Source: Pseudothermotoga sp. (lineage in GTDB: Bacteria > Thermotogota > Thermotogae > Thermotogales > DSM-5069). From it: a stretch of DNA of 64,000 nt. The stretch lies in the NCBI GenBank assembly GCA_031962025.1, contig JAVRKW010000008.1; one strand, 5' to 3'. The notes below the pieces were generated by a model. The model was not told the origin of the DNA and did not search any database. It worked only from the letters and a program-made list of their open reading frames with translations. Positions 46,823-56,676 of this stretch are shown in pieces. Position 1 is the first letter of the stretch. Every line of letters starts with the position of its first letter. A program made the position numbers and the translations under genes.

Positions 46823-47581
46823 TCAATCGCCAATGAGCCATTTTTTGTAAAGCTCATCTATCAAACCTGTGGTTTTAGCCCACTGAACAAAGGTATCAAG
46901 CCATCTGAGTGTTTCAAAATCACCTTTTCTCACTGCGATACCCAGATCTTCCAGACTGAGCAATTCCTGAACCATTCCCAGTGTGTCATATTTCTGCGTG
47001 AGAAACTTCACGTAGATCGAATCGTTAACCATGATATCTGCGCGCTTTGACACAACCTGAAAGGCTGCCTCATCCATTGTTGAAAAGGTCAGTATCTTTG
47101 CCTTTGGAAACATCCTTCTTGCCGTGAATTCTCCCGTGGTACCAAGCTGAACAGCTATGGTTATCTGTTTTTGAGAGAGTTCCTGATAAGTCGGTGGTGT
47201 TTTAAAACTGGTTTTGTTATATAATATAGCCTGTCCGACAGTTAAATATGGTATCGAAAAATCCACTTTCAGAGCGCGTTCGGGTGTAATTGTCATACCG
47301 GAAAAGATCATGTCGAATTTCCCAGAAAGAAGAGCCGGTATGATACCATCCCAGTTGACAATGACAAACTCCACTTTAACACCGAGAATTTCCGCCATCT
47401 TGTTAATCAGTTCAACTTCAAGCCCGACGCGCTCACCTTTCTCATTTGTGCCATATAGCGGCATGTAACCCTCGTCCTGACCGATTCTCAAAACACCTCT
47501 TTTTTGAATATCTTCGATCAAAGAAGCAAAACTCAGTACCACGACCAGAACCAAAACCACTGCCACTAAGAACCTTTTCAC
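46823..47581 (-). CDS. Polar amino-acid ABC transporter substrate-binding protein (family 3)
   Basis: Signal peptide, RGVLRIG, G.EVEL, WDGIIPAL.SGKFD, TITPERA.KVDFS.PY, VQLGTTG. Confidence 0.92.
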   Translation of the reverse strand: MKRFLVAVVLVLVVVLSFASLIEDIQKRGVLRIGQDEGYMPLYGTNEKGERVGLEVELINKMAEILGVKVEFVIVNWDGIIPALLSGKFDMIFSGMTITPERALKVDFSIPYLTVGQAILYNKTSFKTPPTYQELSQKQITIAVQLGTTGEFTARRMFPKAKILTFSTMDEAAFQVVSKRADIMVNDSIYVKFLTQKYDTLGMVQELLSLEDLGIAVRKGDFETLRWLDTFVQWAKTTGLIDELYKKWLIGD

Positions 47582-47598
47582 CTCGACCACCTCCATAT

Positions 47599-47633
47599 AA
47601 AAAAACCGGGCTGTTTTTCACAGCCCGGTTTTT
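47599..47633 (-). terminator. Intrinsic terminator/attenuator immediately upstream of the SBP Shine-Dalgarno
   Basis: AAAAACCGGGCTGT-GAAAA-ACAGCCCGGTTTTTTT followed by ATATGGAGG. Confidence 0.85.
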
Positions 47634-47777
47634 GTTTCCTACCTATCAGGTGGCATCTAACGAAGTACCACCCGGGGGATCAACCGGGCTGTACCTCGTA
47701 TGATGCTTTATTTCAACTATTGAAGGTTGGAGCCAGTAGTAAAAACCAGTCACAACTAAGCCACCTTTCAATCTGTT
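47634..47777 (-). promoter_or_regulatory. Structured 5' leader with protector hairpin, antiterminator segment and 35-aa uORF (candidate attenuator or riboswitch)
   Basis: Long hairpin 47653-47706; ACAGCCCGGTT duplicated at 47682-47692 and in the terminator 3' arm; uORF GTG 47753 to TGA 47646. Confidence 0.6.
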
Positions 47778-47783
47778 TGCATA

Positions 47784-47812
47784 ATCATACTATGACAAAA
47801 ACTGTTTGTCAA
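47784..47812 (-). promoter_or_regulatory. sigma70-type promoter with overlapping palindromic operator
   Basis: TTGACA-17 nt-TATGAT; TGACAAA-N5-TTTGTCA inverted repeat at 47793-47811. Confidence 0.8.
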
Positions 47813-47819
47813 GAGTCAA

Positions 47820-49151
47820 TCACAACCCACTACCTGCCACATCGATATTTTCAATCAAAACAGATGGGAAATAATTAGAACCTGAAACCAGTTCCGAATC
47901 ATTGCCAACTTCTTCAATCTTTTTGAGCAGCTCAAGAATATTTCCAGAAATGGTTATCTGCTCAACAGGCTTTACAATTACACCGTTTTCAACATAATAT
48001 CCCAGTGCACTGACGGAAAACTCTCCAGATACGGTCCTGACTCCTGAGTGCAAACCATCAAGAGCAGTTATTATCAAGCCTTTATCGAGTTGTTTTATCA
48101 GCTCTTCATAGGTTTTGTTTCCCGCTTTGACAACGACATTCAGTGGGACACATTTATAAGTGAAGACATTGCCAGTTGGTTTGACGTTGTCTTTTTTCGC
48201 AGATTTCAACGAGTGAAAATACGTTGTCAGAATACCCTGATCGATGAAAGACTTTCTCCTTGTGGGAACACCTTCATTGTCAAACGATCTCTTTATCGGT
48301 GCTTTTTCAAAAAATGGATCATCTACAACGGTGAGTTTCTCACTGGCAATTTTCGAGTTGAGTTTGCCTTTCAATGGAGACAGACCTTTTTGAACTGATT
48401 CCGCCGAAAAGATCGGCATGAAGGCTGAAAACAGTTCCGAAAAGACATCACGCCTGAGAATCGCCCTGTACTTACCACTTGGAATGCTCTCTGCTCCAAG
48501 TTGAGAAAGTGCTTCCTGCGCCGCCTCAGCAACTATCTTCTCTGGATCGATCTGGTCCGGTTTTGATCCAAATTGAACCTTGAAGCCTCTTTTTGGTTTC
48601 TTGCCATCTGATGCAACAAGATACAGATAAGCCACACCAAGACCTGCGCTTTCCGAAAGATCGAGTCCTTTTGTGTTGAATATACAAATCTCATACTTTT
48701 CGTGAGAATATGCACTCATAATTACCATCGCAATGCGCCTGTCGCGCGCCATCGCTTTCTGCTCCATAGCCTTTGCAAGGTCGATTTTGCTCTTAACTGG
48801 AACTTTTTCAAATTCATCTTCAAAATGCTGCGGCTCGAGATACTCACCAGAACCATTATGAACAGAATCTTCTTCCAGCGTATCTGTCACAAGAAGATTC
48901 TCATAGGCACTATCCACCAGAAATTCAGCAGATTTTTCATCGATGATTTCACACGATGAGAAAGCGGCTTTTGAACCTTTGAGCCCTTTGAATGTAACTT
49001 GGAAAGAATCTGCATCGGTGTAATTGTCAACATTTTGTTTGCTCACAACTACGCCAAATTCCCTGTTTCTCATAAAACGCAGTTCACACTCATCAAAACC
49101 CTTCTTTTTTGCATAAGAAAAAACTCTGTCTTTGAAATCTTCTATTCTCAT
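47820..49151 (-). CDS. pmbA: TldE/PmbA family protein
   Basis: FDNEGVPT, LTTYFHS, GEFSVSA, EQITISGN..ELLK; no HExxxH; follows tldD. Confidence 0.88.
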   Translation of the reverse strand: MRIEDFKDRVFSYAKKKGFDECELRFMRNREFGVVVSKQNVDNYTDADSFQVTFKGLKGSKAAFSSCEIIDEKSAEFLVDSAYENLLVTDTLEEDSVHNGSGEYLEPQHFEDEFEKVPVKSKIDLAKAMEQKAMARDRRIAMVIMSAYSHEKYEICIFNTKGLDLSESAGLGVAYLYLVASDGKKPKRGFKVQFGSKPDQIDPEKIVAEAAQEALSQLGAESIPSGKYRAILRRDVFSELFSAFMPIFSAESVQKGLSPLKGKLNSKIASEKLTVVDDPFFEKAPIKRSFDNEGVPTRRKSFIDQGILTTYFHSLKSAKKDNVKPTGNVFTYKCVPLNVVVKAGNKTYEELIKQLDKGLIITALDGLHSGVRTVSGEFSVSALGYYVENGVIVKPVEQITISGNILELLKKIEEVGNDSELVSGSNYFPSVLIENIDVAGSGL

Positions 49152-51702: not shown

Positions 51703-51725
51703 AAAAGGGGCAAATGCCCCTTTTT
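51701..51725. terminator. Bidirectional intrinsic terminator between convergent rlmL-like gene and rpoC
   Basis: AAAAAAGGGGC-AAAT-GCCCCTTTTT. Confidence 0.85.
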
Positions 51726-54700
51726 ATGCCATCTTTTCAGCTTCTGCCGCTCTTGGAGTTTCTTCTATCTGGATATTCGCAAAGGTCTCAAGACCGGTAC
51801 CCGCAGGTATGAGCTGACCGACTATGACATTTTCTTTCAAACCTTCTAAGAAGTCTACACTACCTTCCACAGCAGCTTCTGTGAGAACCTGAGGTGTCTG
51901 TTGGAACGACGCGGCGCTCAGCCATCCTTTTTGTTCCAAGGAAGCCTTTGTTATTCTCAAAAGTCTTCTTCTGTATCTCATAGGTTCTTTCGGTGCTATC
52001 TGATAGAAAGTTGGTTTGCCCTCGTCGTAGATACAGACTTCTTTTACTCCTGCCTGAATCGCTTTCTCAAGTACTTCTTCAACCAGTTCTGTTCCTTCGG
52101 CTGCTATTTCCTCGATCTGATCACCAATCTTTGCAACTATCTTTTTTGCGAGAATCTTACCAAGCACAAAATTCTTGTTGCTCTGAACATTTGCATTGGC
52201 TTTCAATATCTCTTCGTTTATTTTCTCGGCTTCGGAAATAGCCAGAAGTTGACCGGGTAAGTAGTCTGTATCACCTGGATCGATGACTTCAACCTTTCCA
52301 AGCATCTGTTTTATGATGATCTCAAAGTGTTTATCGTGTATTTCAACACCCTGTTCCACGTAAACCTTCTGCGTTTCCGTGAGTAAATACATTGCTGTCG
52401 CCTCAACTCCAAGAGTATCCATCAACTTTCTCAATCTCACAGCGCCGGTTGTTAGCATCATACCCGGTAATACCTTCTGTCCTACTCTAACCTTGACCTT
52501 TGTTTTGTCGGGGACTTCATACTCGTGTATACCGCCAAGGTAATCCTCGATGTATACCTTCTGTTTACCGTCAACATCCTTTATATCTTTCACAAAACCG
52601 GCTTGTAGAGCGAAAACTCCTTCTGGCTCTTTGAGCTTTTTCCTTGCTTCGAAAAGCTCCTCTGCTCTCGGTAGACCTTGTGTGATGTCGGCAGTTGTTG
52701 CTATACCACCTGTGTGGAATGTTCTCATCGTAAGCTGAGTTCCCGGCTCACCTATAGACTGCGCGGCAATTATACCCACTGCTTCACCAACCTGCACGAT
52801 CTTGTGGTTAGACAGATCCATACCATAACACATCGCGCAGACTCCTTTTTCAGCTTCACATGTGAGCACAGAGCGAATGTAGATATTCGGTCTCACCATG
52901 ACACGACTGATGCCATTTTCTTCGAGTAATTTTGCCGTCGTTTCGTCTATTTCTTCCTGAAACACAAGTAGCTGTTTTTCTCCTTTGTTGTCATTCAAAT
53001 CCTGCTGTGAAATAGTCCCTACTACCGGGTACATTTTTATCTTCAAAGATCTTCTGCCTGCGTTTCTTGCCGTTCTCACAACATCCCATGTGAGTTCTGT
53101 TCCCACTTCTAAATAAGTACCATCTGTTCGTACCTCTTCTGCCAGTTCAGAGTAACAGTGAGGCAAGTGCAAGCTCTGTAAATCCAGCGTCTGTTCAACA
53201 CAAACTGGAACAGACACAGTGTAATTTGCAAGAAATTCGGCATCGTCATCAGAAAGCATTGTGTTTCTGAGATATTCTCTACCGGTCTGTGGATTTTTCA
53301 CAACCTCTCCGGTCAGTGGATCAAGGACATCTTTTGCCAGAGTCCTTCCAAAGAGAAAATCTTTCAGTTTTTGTACATCCAAATTGTCACTGCTCACGAG
53401 TTTAATGGCTTTTATACCATTTTCTGTACCACAATCGGTTGTTGTTATGACCACACTCTGAGAAACATCCACCAATCTGCGTGTTAAATAACCAGCCGAA
53501 GATGTTCTCAATGCTGTGTCTGCCGCACCTTTTCTTGCACCGTGCGTTGAGATGAAAAATTCCATGCTGGTTAGACCTTCACGGAAGTTTGAAATGATCG
53601 GTATTTCGATAGTTCTACCAGATGGGTCTGCCATCAATCCGCGCATTCCCGCAAGTTGTTTGACCTGATCTATGTTACCCCTTGCACCTGAATTAACCAT
53701 CATATACACCGGATTGAACGGATTTTCACCAAGAGCACTGTAAGTTGCATTCTGAACATCTTCTGTGGCTTTGTTCCATACCTTTATTATTTCTCTGTAT
53801 CTTTCCTCAAAATTGAGAAATCCCTCGTTGAACTGATCTTCAATGTACTCCACTTTCTGTCTGGCTTGTTCAATTATCTGGTTTTTCTTCGGTGACACTA
53901 TTAAGTCTTTTAGAGAAATCGTCAGTCCGGAAACTGTGGCATAATGGAAGCCAAGGTCTTTCATGTCGTCCAGTAAGTCTGCTGTGGCATCGATACCGTG
54001 TCGCTTGAAGGTATCATATATCACGTTTTTGATTTCTTTTTTGCCGAAGGTACGTTCATAATCTCTCAGGTCTGGCGGGATGATTTCGTTGAGAATGATC
54101 CTTCCAACTGTTGTTTTGACTATCTGTTCTTTATCATTAATTCTCACCTTCGCCAGTACCGGTGTGTGAAGCTTAACATATCCCAGAGAATATGCGAGTA
54201 CAGCCTCTTCAGTTGATCCAAAACGATATTTTATTTCCTGTGGTTTTACCTTATCAAAATCATTTCCTACAGCCGTCAGATAGTACACTCCGACGATTAT
54301 ATCCTTACCTGGCATCGATATCGGTTTTCCATGTGCCGGTGATATTATGTTATATCTGGAAAGCATCAAATATTTTGCTTCAGCCTGTGCAGCAGCCGAA
54401 AGTGGCACATGCACTGCCATCTGGTCACCATCGAAGTCAGCATTGAACGGTGGACAAACAAGCGGATGAAGCTGGATGGCATTACCTTCTATCAGCTTTG
54501 GCTCAAAAGCCTGTATGGACATCCTGTGAAGTGTAGGAGCTCTGTTGAGCAAAACCGGATGACCTTTTATAACCTCTTCAAGTATGTCCCATGCCTCAGG
54601 CATTTCTTTTTCTATTATTGCTTTTTTCATTTTACGAGCCGCTTTGCTTGACTCTCCACCTTCTTCAAGGAGTTTTGACAGGACGAATGGCTTGAACAAT

Positions 54701-56676
54701 TCCATAGCCATCTTCTTCGGCAGACCGCACTGATGTATCTTCAATTCAGGACCAACAACTATAACGGCTCTACCGGAATAGTCCACGCGTTTTCCCAGAA
54801 GATTTCGTCTGAATCTTCCCTTTTTACCCTTAACAAGATCAGTCAGAGATTTGAGCGCTCTACCATTTCTATCTGCAACAGCCTTACCAATCCTTCCGTT
54901 GTAAATGAGACTGTCAACTGCCTCCTGAAGCATTCTTTTTTCGTTTCTTATAATAATATCCGGCGCATTGAGCTCTAAGAGCCTTTTGAGCCTGTTGTTT
55001 CTGTTTATAACTCTTCGATAAAGATCGTTCAAATCTGTAGTGGCAAACCTGCCTCCATCTATCTGAATCATGGGTCTGAGTTCAGGTGGAATAACGGGTA
55101 CGACCTCCAGAACCATCCATTCTGGTCTTGCATTGGATTTGATCAAATCTTTCACGATCTTCAACCTCTTCAAAAGCTTCAACGCTCTTCCACTGCTCTT
55201 TGGAAGCTGGGACAGTTCTGATTCGATCTGCGCTTTGAGTTTTTCTAAATCGATTTTTTCGAGCAATTTTTTGACTGCTGTTGCACCATAGTGAGCCTCT
55301 ATCTTGCCAGGATACAGTTCTCTATAAGCTTCGTATTCACTCTCGGTTATGATCGAACCAACGGTTAAACCAGTTTTCTTTGAGAGCTCTTCATCGATTT
55401 CTGTGATGGCTACTATGGGCCTATCATTCTCAACCTCTGCCTCAACTGTGAATTGATCAGGATAGTGTTCCTGGAAAATCTTGTACTCGTGGGCAGACAG
55501 TACCTCGTCTTCAAACAGAAACCTATCTGCCAAATAATCTCCTGCCTTGACTGTATCACCGTCATTGACGTATGCCAGCGCACCTTCAAAGATTGGGTAT
55601 TGTTTTTCCTGAATGACCTGTTCGATATACAAAGTACCAGCCGAAAGAACTTCATAAGTGCCGTCTTCCATCGGTCTGACATTTAGATCTCTGCCGAAAA
55701 CCACCCTACCAGAACCCGGGCTCTGAACAGGCTGAATTGTACCGGCACTCAAAAGTTCATCGGCAGCTTTTACTTTGCTACCATTTTTGACCATTACCCT
55801 GACACAGTACGGAATAGTCACAGTAACAGGCTGTTCTTTGCTGGTAGCAAGTGGTTTGACTGTCATGGTAGAAGCGAGTTCGTCTATCTCAACAGATCCG
55901 TCAAAAGGCGCATAAAACGGCGGAATCTGTTTCTCAGCAACCAGAAGAGTGTCTTTTTCAACCATCTGGTCGTTTTTCACCAAAAGGATCATACCCGGTT
56001 GAAGTTGGATGGGTATACGCTGATTGTTTCGAACTATTATCCAGGTGATTTCCCTTCCAGTGTTACCTTTTTCAGTTTTAATTTTGATTTCACCGTCGAT
56101 ATCAGATACAACAGGCGATTTTGGATTTTTAACGGTAACTGCCATCTCTGCTTCAAAATCCAGAGCATTTTTGTAAATCTCATACTCGGTCTCATACAGC
56201 ACATCACCAGCAGCAAATTGAGTCTTTTTTGGGTCAATAATCACATAGGAACGCTCGATAATCCTTCTACTGCCGTGGTATATGATATTTTCAAGATCTC
56301 GTGCCGGTATATTCAACAGCGTGGAAAGCACGCTCGGACTGCTTTTCAAATACCATATATGTACAACTGGAGCTGCCAGTTCTATATGTCCCATCCTTTT
56401 TCGACGTGCTTCTTTGGATTCTACTCTCACACCGCATCTTTCACATACAGTTCCCTCGTATTTTTTGCCTTTGTACTTTCCACAAACGCATTCGTAATCT
56501 TTTGTCGGTCCGAAGATTTTCTCGCAAAACAATCCGTCACGTTCTGGCTTGAAAGATCTGTAATTGATGGTCTCAGGTTTTTTAACTTCTCCACTGGACC
56601 AGCTTCTTATTGTTTCAGCAGAAGCTATACCAACCTTGACAGATGCTATTTTTCTCTTAAAAGTAGATATCGCCAT
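51724..56676 (-). CDS. rpoC: RNA polymerase beta' subunit (1650 aa, with lineage-specific insertions)
   Basis: KPETINYR, Zn-binding Cys motif, [25 protein letters not shown]. Confidence 0.98.

Follow-up and report, generated by a model that had tools for sequence, protein, structure and literature searches.

How can a transporter operon be expressed when a strong intrinsic terminator stands immediately in front of the ribosome-binding site of its first gene, and what signal would decide whether transcription passes it? The question is raised by a stretch of Pseudothermotoga sp. DNA of 64,000 nucleotides (nt; contig JAVRKW010000008.1, hereafter the window, whose 64-kb numbering is used throughout), in which a leader on the minus strand, where all leader features discussed here lie, precedes an operon of three overlapping genes for the family-3 substrate-binding protein, the permease and the ATPase of an ATP-binding cassette (ABC) importer. 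We consider it about 80% probable that the region is a ribosome-mediated (leader-peptide) transcription attenuator placed before this cationic-amino-acid importer operon. A first-pass annotation had already put forward a leader-peptide attenuator with protector, antiterminator and terminator hairpins and tandem His control codons, and this notion is supported by an upstream open reading frame (uORF) conserved in its frame and in a His codon, by covarying helices and by the lack of any match in Rfam.

The promoter, the uORF with its Shine-Dalgarno sequence (SD), the protector, the terminator and a repeated 11-mer are all found where the first-pass annotation had placed them (Table 1). The promoter is the top scorer in a 5-kb scan, and transcription likely starts near 47777. 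The uORF could also be read from an alternative in-frame TTG at 47771 upstream, giving 41 residues, and both of its adjacent His codons sit, as had been claimed, within the 5' base of the protector, GCAUC (47706-47702), a hairpin of -32.8 kcal/mol, while the stop codon UGA (47648-47646) overlaps the 3' arm of the inner antiterminator helix P2. The 11-mer ACAGCCCGGTT is present twice, as element A in the leader and as element D in the terminator, and its complement is element C; with at most one mismatch it has three matches in 64 kb where 0.51 are expected, and none of 100 shuffles yielded three. The terminator (-23.8 kcal/mol), whose 14-bp stem encloses a loop of 5 nt and whose U7 tract reaches to 47599, was not listed by a terminator scan, yet it is present in all folds, and merely the 4 nt AUAU separate it from the transporter SD GGAGG (47594-47590), in agreement with the spacing described before. 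A separate promoter downstream of the terminator had been named as a point that would speak against attenuation, and there is no space for one between the terminator and the transporter gene. The fold of the full leader is furthermore far more stable than those of shuffled sequences (z = -6.6, 0/200 shuffles as stable).

Table 1. Features of the leader and of the importer operon in the window.
Feature	Position	Strand	Details
pmbA end (stop)	47820	-	opens the intergenic region; no own terminator found between pmbA and the leader
Sigma-70-type promoter	47812-47784	-	-35 TTGACA 47812-47807, 17-nt spacer, -10 TATGAT 47789-47784; 11/12 consensus matches
Leader-peptide SD	47767-47761	-	AAGGTGG, 7 nt 5' of the GTG start
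Leader-peptide uORF	47753-47646	-	GTG 47753, TGA 47648-47646; 35 codons and stop; MTGFYYWLQPSIVEIKHHTRYSPVDPPGGTSLDAT
Control codons	47708-47700	-	AAG CAU CAU (K16 H17 H18); H17 47705-47703, H18 47702-47700
Protector (anti-antiterminator) hairpin	47706-47653	-	25 bp, interrupted; GCAUC/GAUGC, ACGAGGUAC/GUACUUCGU, GCCCGG/CCGGGU
Element A	47692-47682	-	ACAGCCCGGUU; 5' strand of antiterminator helix P1; same sequence as the terminator 3' arm
Inner antiterminator helix P2	47674-47666 with 47655-47647	-	CGGGUGGUA pairs with UGCCACCUG
Intrinsic terminator	47633-47599	-	5' arm AAAAACCGGGCUGU 47633-47620, loop GAAAA, 3' arm ACAGCCCGGUUUUU 47614-47601
Element C	47630-47620	-	within the terminator 5' arm; complement of the 11-mer
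Element D	47614-47604	-	second copy of the 11-mer, in the terminator 3' arm
Substrate-binding protein gene	47594-46823	-	polar/cationic amino-acid ABC importer; SD GGAGG 47594-47590; listed ATG 47596
Permease gene	46857-46087	-	same operon; frames overlap
ATPase gene	46090-45359	-	same operon; frames overlap

Relatives of the locus were collected by protein and protein-alignment searches of genome and metagenome collections, which gave about 60 loci, and leaders were compared over about 22 distinct Thermotogota loci, with an alignment of 22 sequences (A2) for structure and frame and 13 representative leaders for a test of the uORF. A TTGACA...TAnnAT promoter and a uORF of 24-36 codons with SD and start codon are common to all orthologous leaders of the window type, as is a CCGGGC...GCCCGG terminator a few nt 5' of the SD of the gene. 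In 13/13 representative leaders, an in-frame start with an SD before it lies 8 or more codons ahead of the His codon, and dinucleotide shuffles show the same arrangement at a rate of 0.5-12.5% per leader, which would combine to about 1e-20 if the leaders were independent, a value that overstates the case because the loci are related. The N-terminal parts of the leader peptides are not alignable between clades and the other two reading frames usually contain stops, but the frame across the conserved core is identical in all clades of A2 and the sole indel in the shared coding part is one of 3 nt. The H17 codon (A2 columns 7-9) is invariant across the phylum, changing solely synonymously between CAT and CAC (column 9 is T or C), and it precedes the antiterminator core GCCCGG by 16 nt, so that the frame and the first His, whose conservation in orthologous leaders had been suggested as a check, are indeed kept across divergent Thermotogota. 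In addition, His makes up 7.8% of the leader residues (27/344), in-frame CAY exceeds out-of-frame CAY per position, and the stop codon is in every long leader of A2 located in the loop or the 3' arm of P2. The control codons are set such that a stalled ribosome would cover the first pairing segment and not the antiterminator strand.

Covariation in orthologous leaders, likewise proposed earlier as a check, was scored on A2 for three mutually exclusive structures, with slid structures and 500 shuffles as controls. The antiterminator, formed by helix P1 (A with C; columns 19-30:88-99) together with helix P2 (47674-47666 with 47655-47647; columns 38-48:56-66), has 82% of its cells paired and a score of 0.267 (best slid structure 0.135), the protector (47706-47653; columns 4-10:56-62 and 13-28:37-52) has 73% paired and 0.258 (0.119), and the terminator (47633-47599; columns 86-98:105-117) has 91% paired and 0.227 (0.082), with 0/500 shuffles in each case, and all three structures therefore exceed both controls, of which the slid one is the fairer, since the A2 sequences are related and the shuffles inflate the significance. 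P1 is 87.5% paired with covarying flanking pairs and P2 76% paired with 6/11 pairs changed on both sides; overall, 10 pairs of the antiterminator show two-sided change and five pairs of the terminator compensatory change. P2 is the most informative helix, taking the forms GGUGGUA/UGCCACC, GUAGCA/UGCUGC, GCAGCA/UGCUGU, AGCACG/CGUGCU and GGCAC/GUGCU in different clades, and the invariance of the GCCCGG/CCGGGC core can be ascribed to its being held at once by coding, protector, P1 and terminator. Unguided RNAalifold returned the protector and the terminator, with the His codon (columns 7-9) paired to columns 57-59 in the protector base. The first-pass annotation had let stalling at His free the antiterminator, and the A:C antiterminator does covary, but its release would require the additional helix P2, which had gone unseen and which competes with the protector.

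Before D has been made, the protector state and the antiterminator state are iso-energetic (-51.9 versus -53.0 kcal/mol at 37 C and -22.6 versus -22.8 at 65 C), and the outcome would accordingly be set by the order of folding and by the ribosome. When the ribosome-covered part is removed, the nested antiterminator becomes the minimum-free-energy structure (-31.5), and P2 amounts to -15.1 as against -12.6 kcal/mol for the residual top of the protector. From the elements themselves, the conservation of the frame and the His codon and the covariation of the three structures, we infer stalling, folding order and sensed amino acid as follows. Transcription would start near 47777 and a ribosome would load on the 35-codon uORF. 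By default, the nascent RNA would fold into the protector (47706-47653), burying element A and the 3' arm of P2, and C would be free to pair with D, so that the terminator (47633-47599) halts transcription 4 nt before the ribosome-binding site of the transporter; termination should be the default because the protector is local and made first. Under starvation, scarcity of charged tRNA-His would stall the ribosome with H17 or H18 (47705-47700) in the A site, and its footprint, reaching some 12-13 nt downstream, would melt the protector's lower and middle 5' strand and end just before A. The freed 3' strand could then form P2 (47674-47666 with 47655-47647), pulling CCGGGU off A, and A would pair with C (47630-47620) into a nested two-helix antiterminator that blocks the terminator and allows the operon to be transcribed. 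With plentiful His, the ribosome would reach the stop codon (47648-47646) and occupy the 3' arm of P2, and with P2 prevented, A would re-pair with its protector partner CCGGGU and the terminator would form. The obvious reading of the control codons is that histidine is sensed, both at the window (K-H-H) and in the clades with HHH, a reading that agrees with known His-leader attenuators of Proteobacteria and several Firmicutes.

What precedes the orthologous binding-protein gene elsewhere is of two kinds, a lysine riboswitch or a leader like that of the window. The window-type leader occurs in Pseudothermotoga, Kosmotogaceae, Petrotogales-like metagenome-assembled genomes (MAGs), two other Thermotogaceae clades and the locus L010. 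The lysine riboswitch (RF00168) is found in the Thermotoga-like loci L005, L020-L027, L037 and L047-L055, with 100.7 bits at 2748-2933 of L005, the sole one of them scanned with Rfam, the other loci being near-identical to it by eye. The binding protein of the window is 89-92% identical to those of Pseudothermotoga MAGs and genomes, and the riboswitch-preceded binding proteins are at 62-71% identity. As judged from these sequences, the sensor is swapped at one orthologous locus, with a His-codon attenuator in some lineages and a lysine riboswitch in others. It should also be mentioned that one of the riboswitch loci, L026 (JAMOPD010000220.1), carries the label of a Thermococcaceae archaeon even though its lysine riboswitch and binding-protein locus differs hardly at all from L024 and L027, which come from Thermotogaceae MAGs, and this contig is probably a binning contaminant.

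The transporter itself points to a broad substrate range. The binding protein, which in view of the SD at 47594-47590 probably starts at GTG 47581 and not at the in-frame ATG that is listed, has TIGR01096 (the Lys/Arg/Orn subfamily) as its best family match (3e-42). It contains the motif GQD-EG-Y-MP, which we take to correspond to Asp11 and Tyr14 of the LAO-binding protein, holding the cationic side chain, and the positions presumed on this mapping to contact the ligand are invariant between riboswitch-regulated L005 and the leader-regulated binding proteins. Its best solved relatives are AncCDT-1 (2e-62) and Ws0279/3k4u (8e-51), of which the former has a Kd of 0.3-6.7 uM for Arg, Orn, His and Lys, and the latter is a lysine binder (bioRxiv 10.1101/157495). 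The histidine import suggested by the first-pass annotation agrees with the His codons and with relatives that bind His, but it is probably too narrow, and the importer is likely to take cationic amino acids more generally, since the lysine riboswitch occurs at orthologous loci and the nearest characterised relatives bind Arg, Orn and Lys as well. Furthermore, the lysine riboswitch of the orthologues and the Lys-rich single-His variants of the leader suggest that in some clades lysine may be read as well, through Lys codons beside the His codon, besides being in accord with a broad importer.

Apart from the long leaders, short tandem relatives exist in the Petrotogaceae-like loci L038 (426-661), L041 (1221-1448) and L072 (117-343), each with two complete units, HVHH followed by HHH, and with an SD, start, stop and terminator of its own for each unit (e.g. 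MVNINTNKKLNNHVHHKLVAR and MVFRNIFLNYHHHKYIKARL), and Marinitoga lauensis (L042) has one short unit (...NHHHLRCGLMLTP). In L038 the tandem units precede two binding-protein paralogues followed by a third open reading frame (ORF), probably a permease. Equilibrium folding was carried out for three states, with no ribosome, a ribosome at His and a ribosome at the stop codon, and in the modelled tandem units of L038, L041 and L072, whose geometry is that of the textbook, a ribosome at the stop cuts the antiterminator pairing from 0.82-1.0 to 0.01-0.54.

Several observations weigh against the proposed attenuator or the histidine specificity assigned to it. In the long leaders, equilibrium folding keeps A:C paired in all three ribosome states, including that with the ribosome at the stop codon, and although this lack of discrimination can be attributed to the model omitting ribosome bulk and folding kinetics, the effect of full translation in these leaders rests on a steric and kinetic argument that is the weakest step of the model. 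The A:C pairing is moreover weak in the Petrotogales-like clade (6-8 bp including G-U pairs), and the relatedness of the A2 sequences has been mentioned above. Of the two His codons that had been named as tandem control codons only H17 is invariant, the second being P in L002, Y in L046 and V or K in other clades, while HH, HHH or HVHH are found in Kosmotogaceae, Petrotogaceae-like loci and Marinitoga, and most clades have a run of HH or HHH. In several clades a lone His stands between Lys residues (KKHVK, KKHKK), and such a leader would be a weak sensor of His alone, and the Thermotoga-like orthologues are regulated by lysine through their riboswitch. Finally, a search of sequencing runs matched metagenome DNA runs only and no RNA run, and termination, read-through and translation of the uORF are thus predictions.

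Searches for known RNA families left the leader without a name. In Rfam release 15, a scan of the whole window at the gathering score gave no match at the leader, and in 47450-47950, at E-values up to 10, His_leader, T-box and Lysine were absent, the sub-threshold matches being SSRC10, NsiR1 and, on the wrong strand, Thr_leader, all of them driven by the terminator. Specifically, RF00514 (His_leader) does not match the leader at its gathering score or at E-values up to 10, the covariance model of RF00230 (T-box) has no match in it, and RF00168 is absent from the window; this agrees with the earlier failure to match the leader to a known riboswitch class. A T-box had been suggested by the resemblance of GGGUGGUAC to a T-box sequence, but there is no model match and the stretch is the 5' arm of P2. 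Triplet repeats of the HutP or TRAP type were likewise considered and dropped, there being no conserved repeats in A2. Further copies of the leader were sought with the pattern GCCCGGT-N34-64-CCGGGC-N3-12-GCCCGGTTTTT, which collection-wide gave 69 stretches and no copy in front of other genes; 6/69 are from Thermotogota, all of them known loci, and the others are unrelated GC-rich gene ends. A covariance model, R1, searched against the window and 28 loci, has one strong match in the window (79 bits), which is itself a seed member, and the loci L090, L098 and L103, with the best scores outside the family (37, 29 and 23 bits), are not credible members, having been chosen by the same pattern. Other small ORFs with HH ahead of T runs were also sought in the window, and only chance ORFs inside genes came up.

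It might be argued that the same attenuator senses lysine, or the basic amino acids collectively, by way of the Lys codon or codons beside His, and that CAU is kept mainly for pairing at the base of the protector. This notion stems from the lysine riboswitch that stands at the same place before orthologous transporters in Thermotoga-like genomes, from the 3-4 Lys codons that surround the His in the single-His clades, and from the fact that columns 7-9 do pair with columns 57-59, and the presumed ligand-contacting residues, which are the same under either mode of regulation, speak for it as well. We nevertheless regard it as rather unlikely, since Kosmotogaceae, Petrotogaceae-like genomes and Marinitoga have HHH, HH and HVHH, in part with no Lys nearby (MPHHRLW in L011, NHHHLR in L042), since the window has one Lys and two His codons, and since the invariant His is replaced only synonymously even though other triplets could preserve the pairing. 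A different role for the peptide, that of a nascent-chain sensor of the TnaC/SpeFL type, which would read the free amino acid in the exit tunnel instead of tRNA charging, could explain why long leaders resemble one another downstream of the His across clades ([KR]-[WYL]-x-[CSR]-[PLS] ... G-[GS]-[TS]) while third codon positions vary there (GGU GGU ACU, GGC GGC ACC, GGC AGC ACA), and Pseudothermotoga has D-P-P-G-G in this part. However, the same nucleotides form the covarying A, B and P2, so that RNA pairing is enough to account for the conservation, these motifs are absent from the short relatives, which have the His run alone in common, and PPG is not conserved within the genus (YSPGG in L001). 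Ligand-induced stalling furthermore normally switches a gene on at high ligand, which is the wrong logic for an importer, and an arrest peptide is consequently very improbable. Somewhat less so, but still quite improbable, is the proposal that the long-type peptide ([KH]-H-x-x-[KR]-[WY]-x-[CSR]-P ... G-[GS]-T), besides supplying control codons, is a nascent-chain sensor that binds cationic amino acids in free form inside the exit tunnel, at an intrinsic terminator, or, in a milder form, that adjacent mixed codons make the attenuator respond to the charging of both His and Lys. If true, the dual His/Lys input would explain the exchange with the lysine riboswitch in sister genera, and the arrest-peptide reading would give Thermotogota a TnaC/SpeFL-like peptide wired to an intrinsic terminator.

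The remaining explanations do away with the uORF or with regulation altogether. The ligand-binding riboswitch that the first-pass annotation had offered as its alternative, or a T-box or a protein-binding antitermination leader with an incidental uORF, could account for the strong conserved fold and for the AGGUG/CACCU closing helix, which that annotation had thought possible and which is present in the minimum-free-energy structure at 65 C. The chances of such a leader are nonetheless slight indeed, since T-box, His_leader and Lysine are missing in Rfam even at an E-value of 10, since all conserved nucleotides belong to competing helices, the His codon or the stop, which leaves no conserved junction or loop for a pocket, and since the 5' part, for all its poor conservation, is in every case an ORF in the right frame with an SD in front of it; repeated triplets of the TRAP or HutP type are missing as well. 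That the hairpin does no more than terminate transcription of tldD/pmbA upstream, all else being coincidence, might be supposed because pmbA ends at 47820 and lacks a terminator of its own before the leader. However, pmbA is separated from the hairpins by a near-consensus promoter, loci with a different upstream sequence have kept the leader in full, and the transporter would be left with no promoter after the terminator, and this possibility can for all practical purposes be excluded. A leader-peptide attenuator thus accounts best for the locus.

Some further features of the leader may be mentioned. A perfect 7-bp inverted repeat, TGACAAA-N5-TTTGTCA (47793-47811, minus strand), overlaps the -35 box and the spacer of the leader promoter; it is retained in L001 and degenerate in L004 and L002, and a DNA-binding regulator may use it as an operator in addition to attenuation. 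The uORF SD AGGUGG (47761-47766) is complementary to CCACCU (47648-47653) in the 3' arm of P2, both on the minus strand, and at 65 C the two pair, as AGGUG/CACCU, in the full leader's fold of minimum free energy; once transcription has terminated, this pairing could hide the ribosome-binding site of the uORF. The D-P-P-G-G of the leader peptide (47670-47683, minus strand), a slow motif of the EF-P type, falls exactly over element B and is missing from L001 and other clades. Elsewhere in the window, all on the minus strand, there are a full-length HEARO RNA (RF02033, 17647-17878, 142.9 bits), a ribosomal protein L10 leader (RF00557, 61344-61477) that at 47.1 bits is barely above its gathering score of 44, and an ORF of 1650 residues (51724-56676) a few kb upstream of the tldD/pmbA genes. 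HEARO RNAs are associated with transposon-encoded nucleases of the IscB/HNH type.

Among known systems, the leader is reminiscent of the hisL attenuator of the his operon in E. coli and Salmonella (RF00514). [quoted passage not shown] Unlike hisL, the window leader has no sequence or structure match to RF00514, the His codons number one to three instead of seven, the helices are nested (a long protector, and P1 enclosing P2) instead of serial (A:B, C:D, E:F), and the Thermotogota leader controls an importer and not biosynthesis. With trpL of E. coli it shares two adjacent control codons, the 1:2, 2:3 and 3:4 logic and, in the model proposed here, a stop codon placed so as to decide on the antiterminator, but trpL has four segments only, whereas here the 5' strand of the antiterminator lies in the protector 5' arm and would be released by the further helix P2. 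The lysine riboswitch of lysXY-type ABC transporters (RF00168) has the same position before the orthologous gene, ends in a terminator and likewise represses the importer when the amino acid is plentiful; it is however a direct ligand-binding aptamer that requires no translation, and the window does not match it. Leader-peptide attenuation belongs to textbook knowledge, but its documented cases are for the most part from Proteobacteria, Actinobacteria and a few Firmicutes. His-leader attenuators of Firmicutes (the Bacillus cereus group, Peptostreptococcaceae and Erysipelotrichales), predicted by comparative genomics only, control his operons and/or the hisXYZ histidine ABC transporter, and their leader peptides with 3-5 consecutive His codons are followed by attenuator, antiterminator and terminator hairpins (PMC9413887). 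They belong to another phylum, the window has two His codons, and the likeness drawn here is one of description.

A literature search, outside which Vitreschak et al. 2004 (FEMS Microbiol Lett) fell, found no description of this Thermotogota leader family. The abstract of that paper reportedly mentions attenuators in Thermotogales. The switch, which is absent from Rfam, is of a known kind, with his/trp-type logic, and the locus may have been predicted before.

Within the deep-branching and thermophilic Thermotogota, the locus defines a conserved family of probable His-codon attenuators with covarying structures. The same importer is under the proposed attenuator in Pseudothermotoga, Kosmotogaceae and Petrotogales-like genomes and under a lysine riboswitch in Thermotoga-like ones, which makes for a clean natural swap of sensors and gives a clue to several cationic substrates. 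The design is nested, in that the CCGGGC/GCCCGG core is locked by three mutually exclusive pairings and by coding, with two states that are iso-energetic before the last strand is made, and Petrotogaceae-like genomes stack two complete leader-peptide attenuators in tandem. Attenuation of this kind would furthermore imply a sufficiently close coupling of transcription to translation at the temperatures at which these thermophiles grow.

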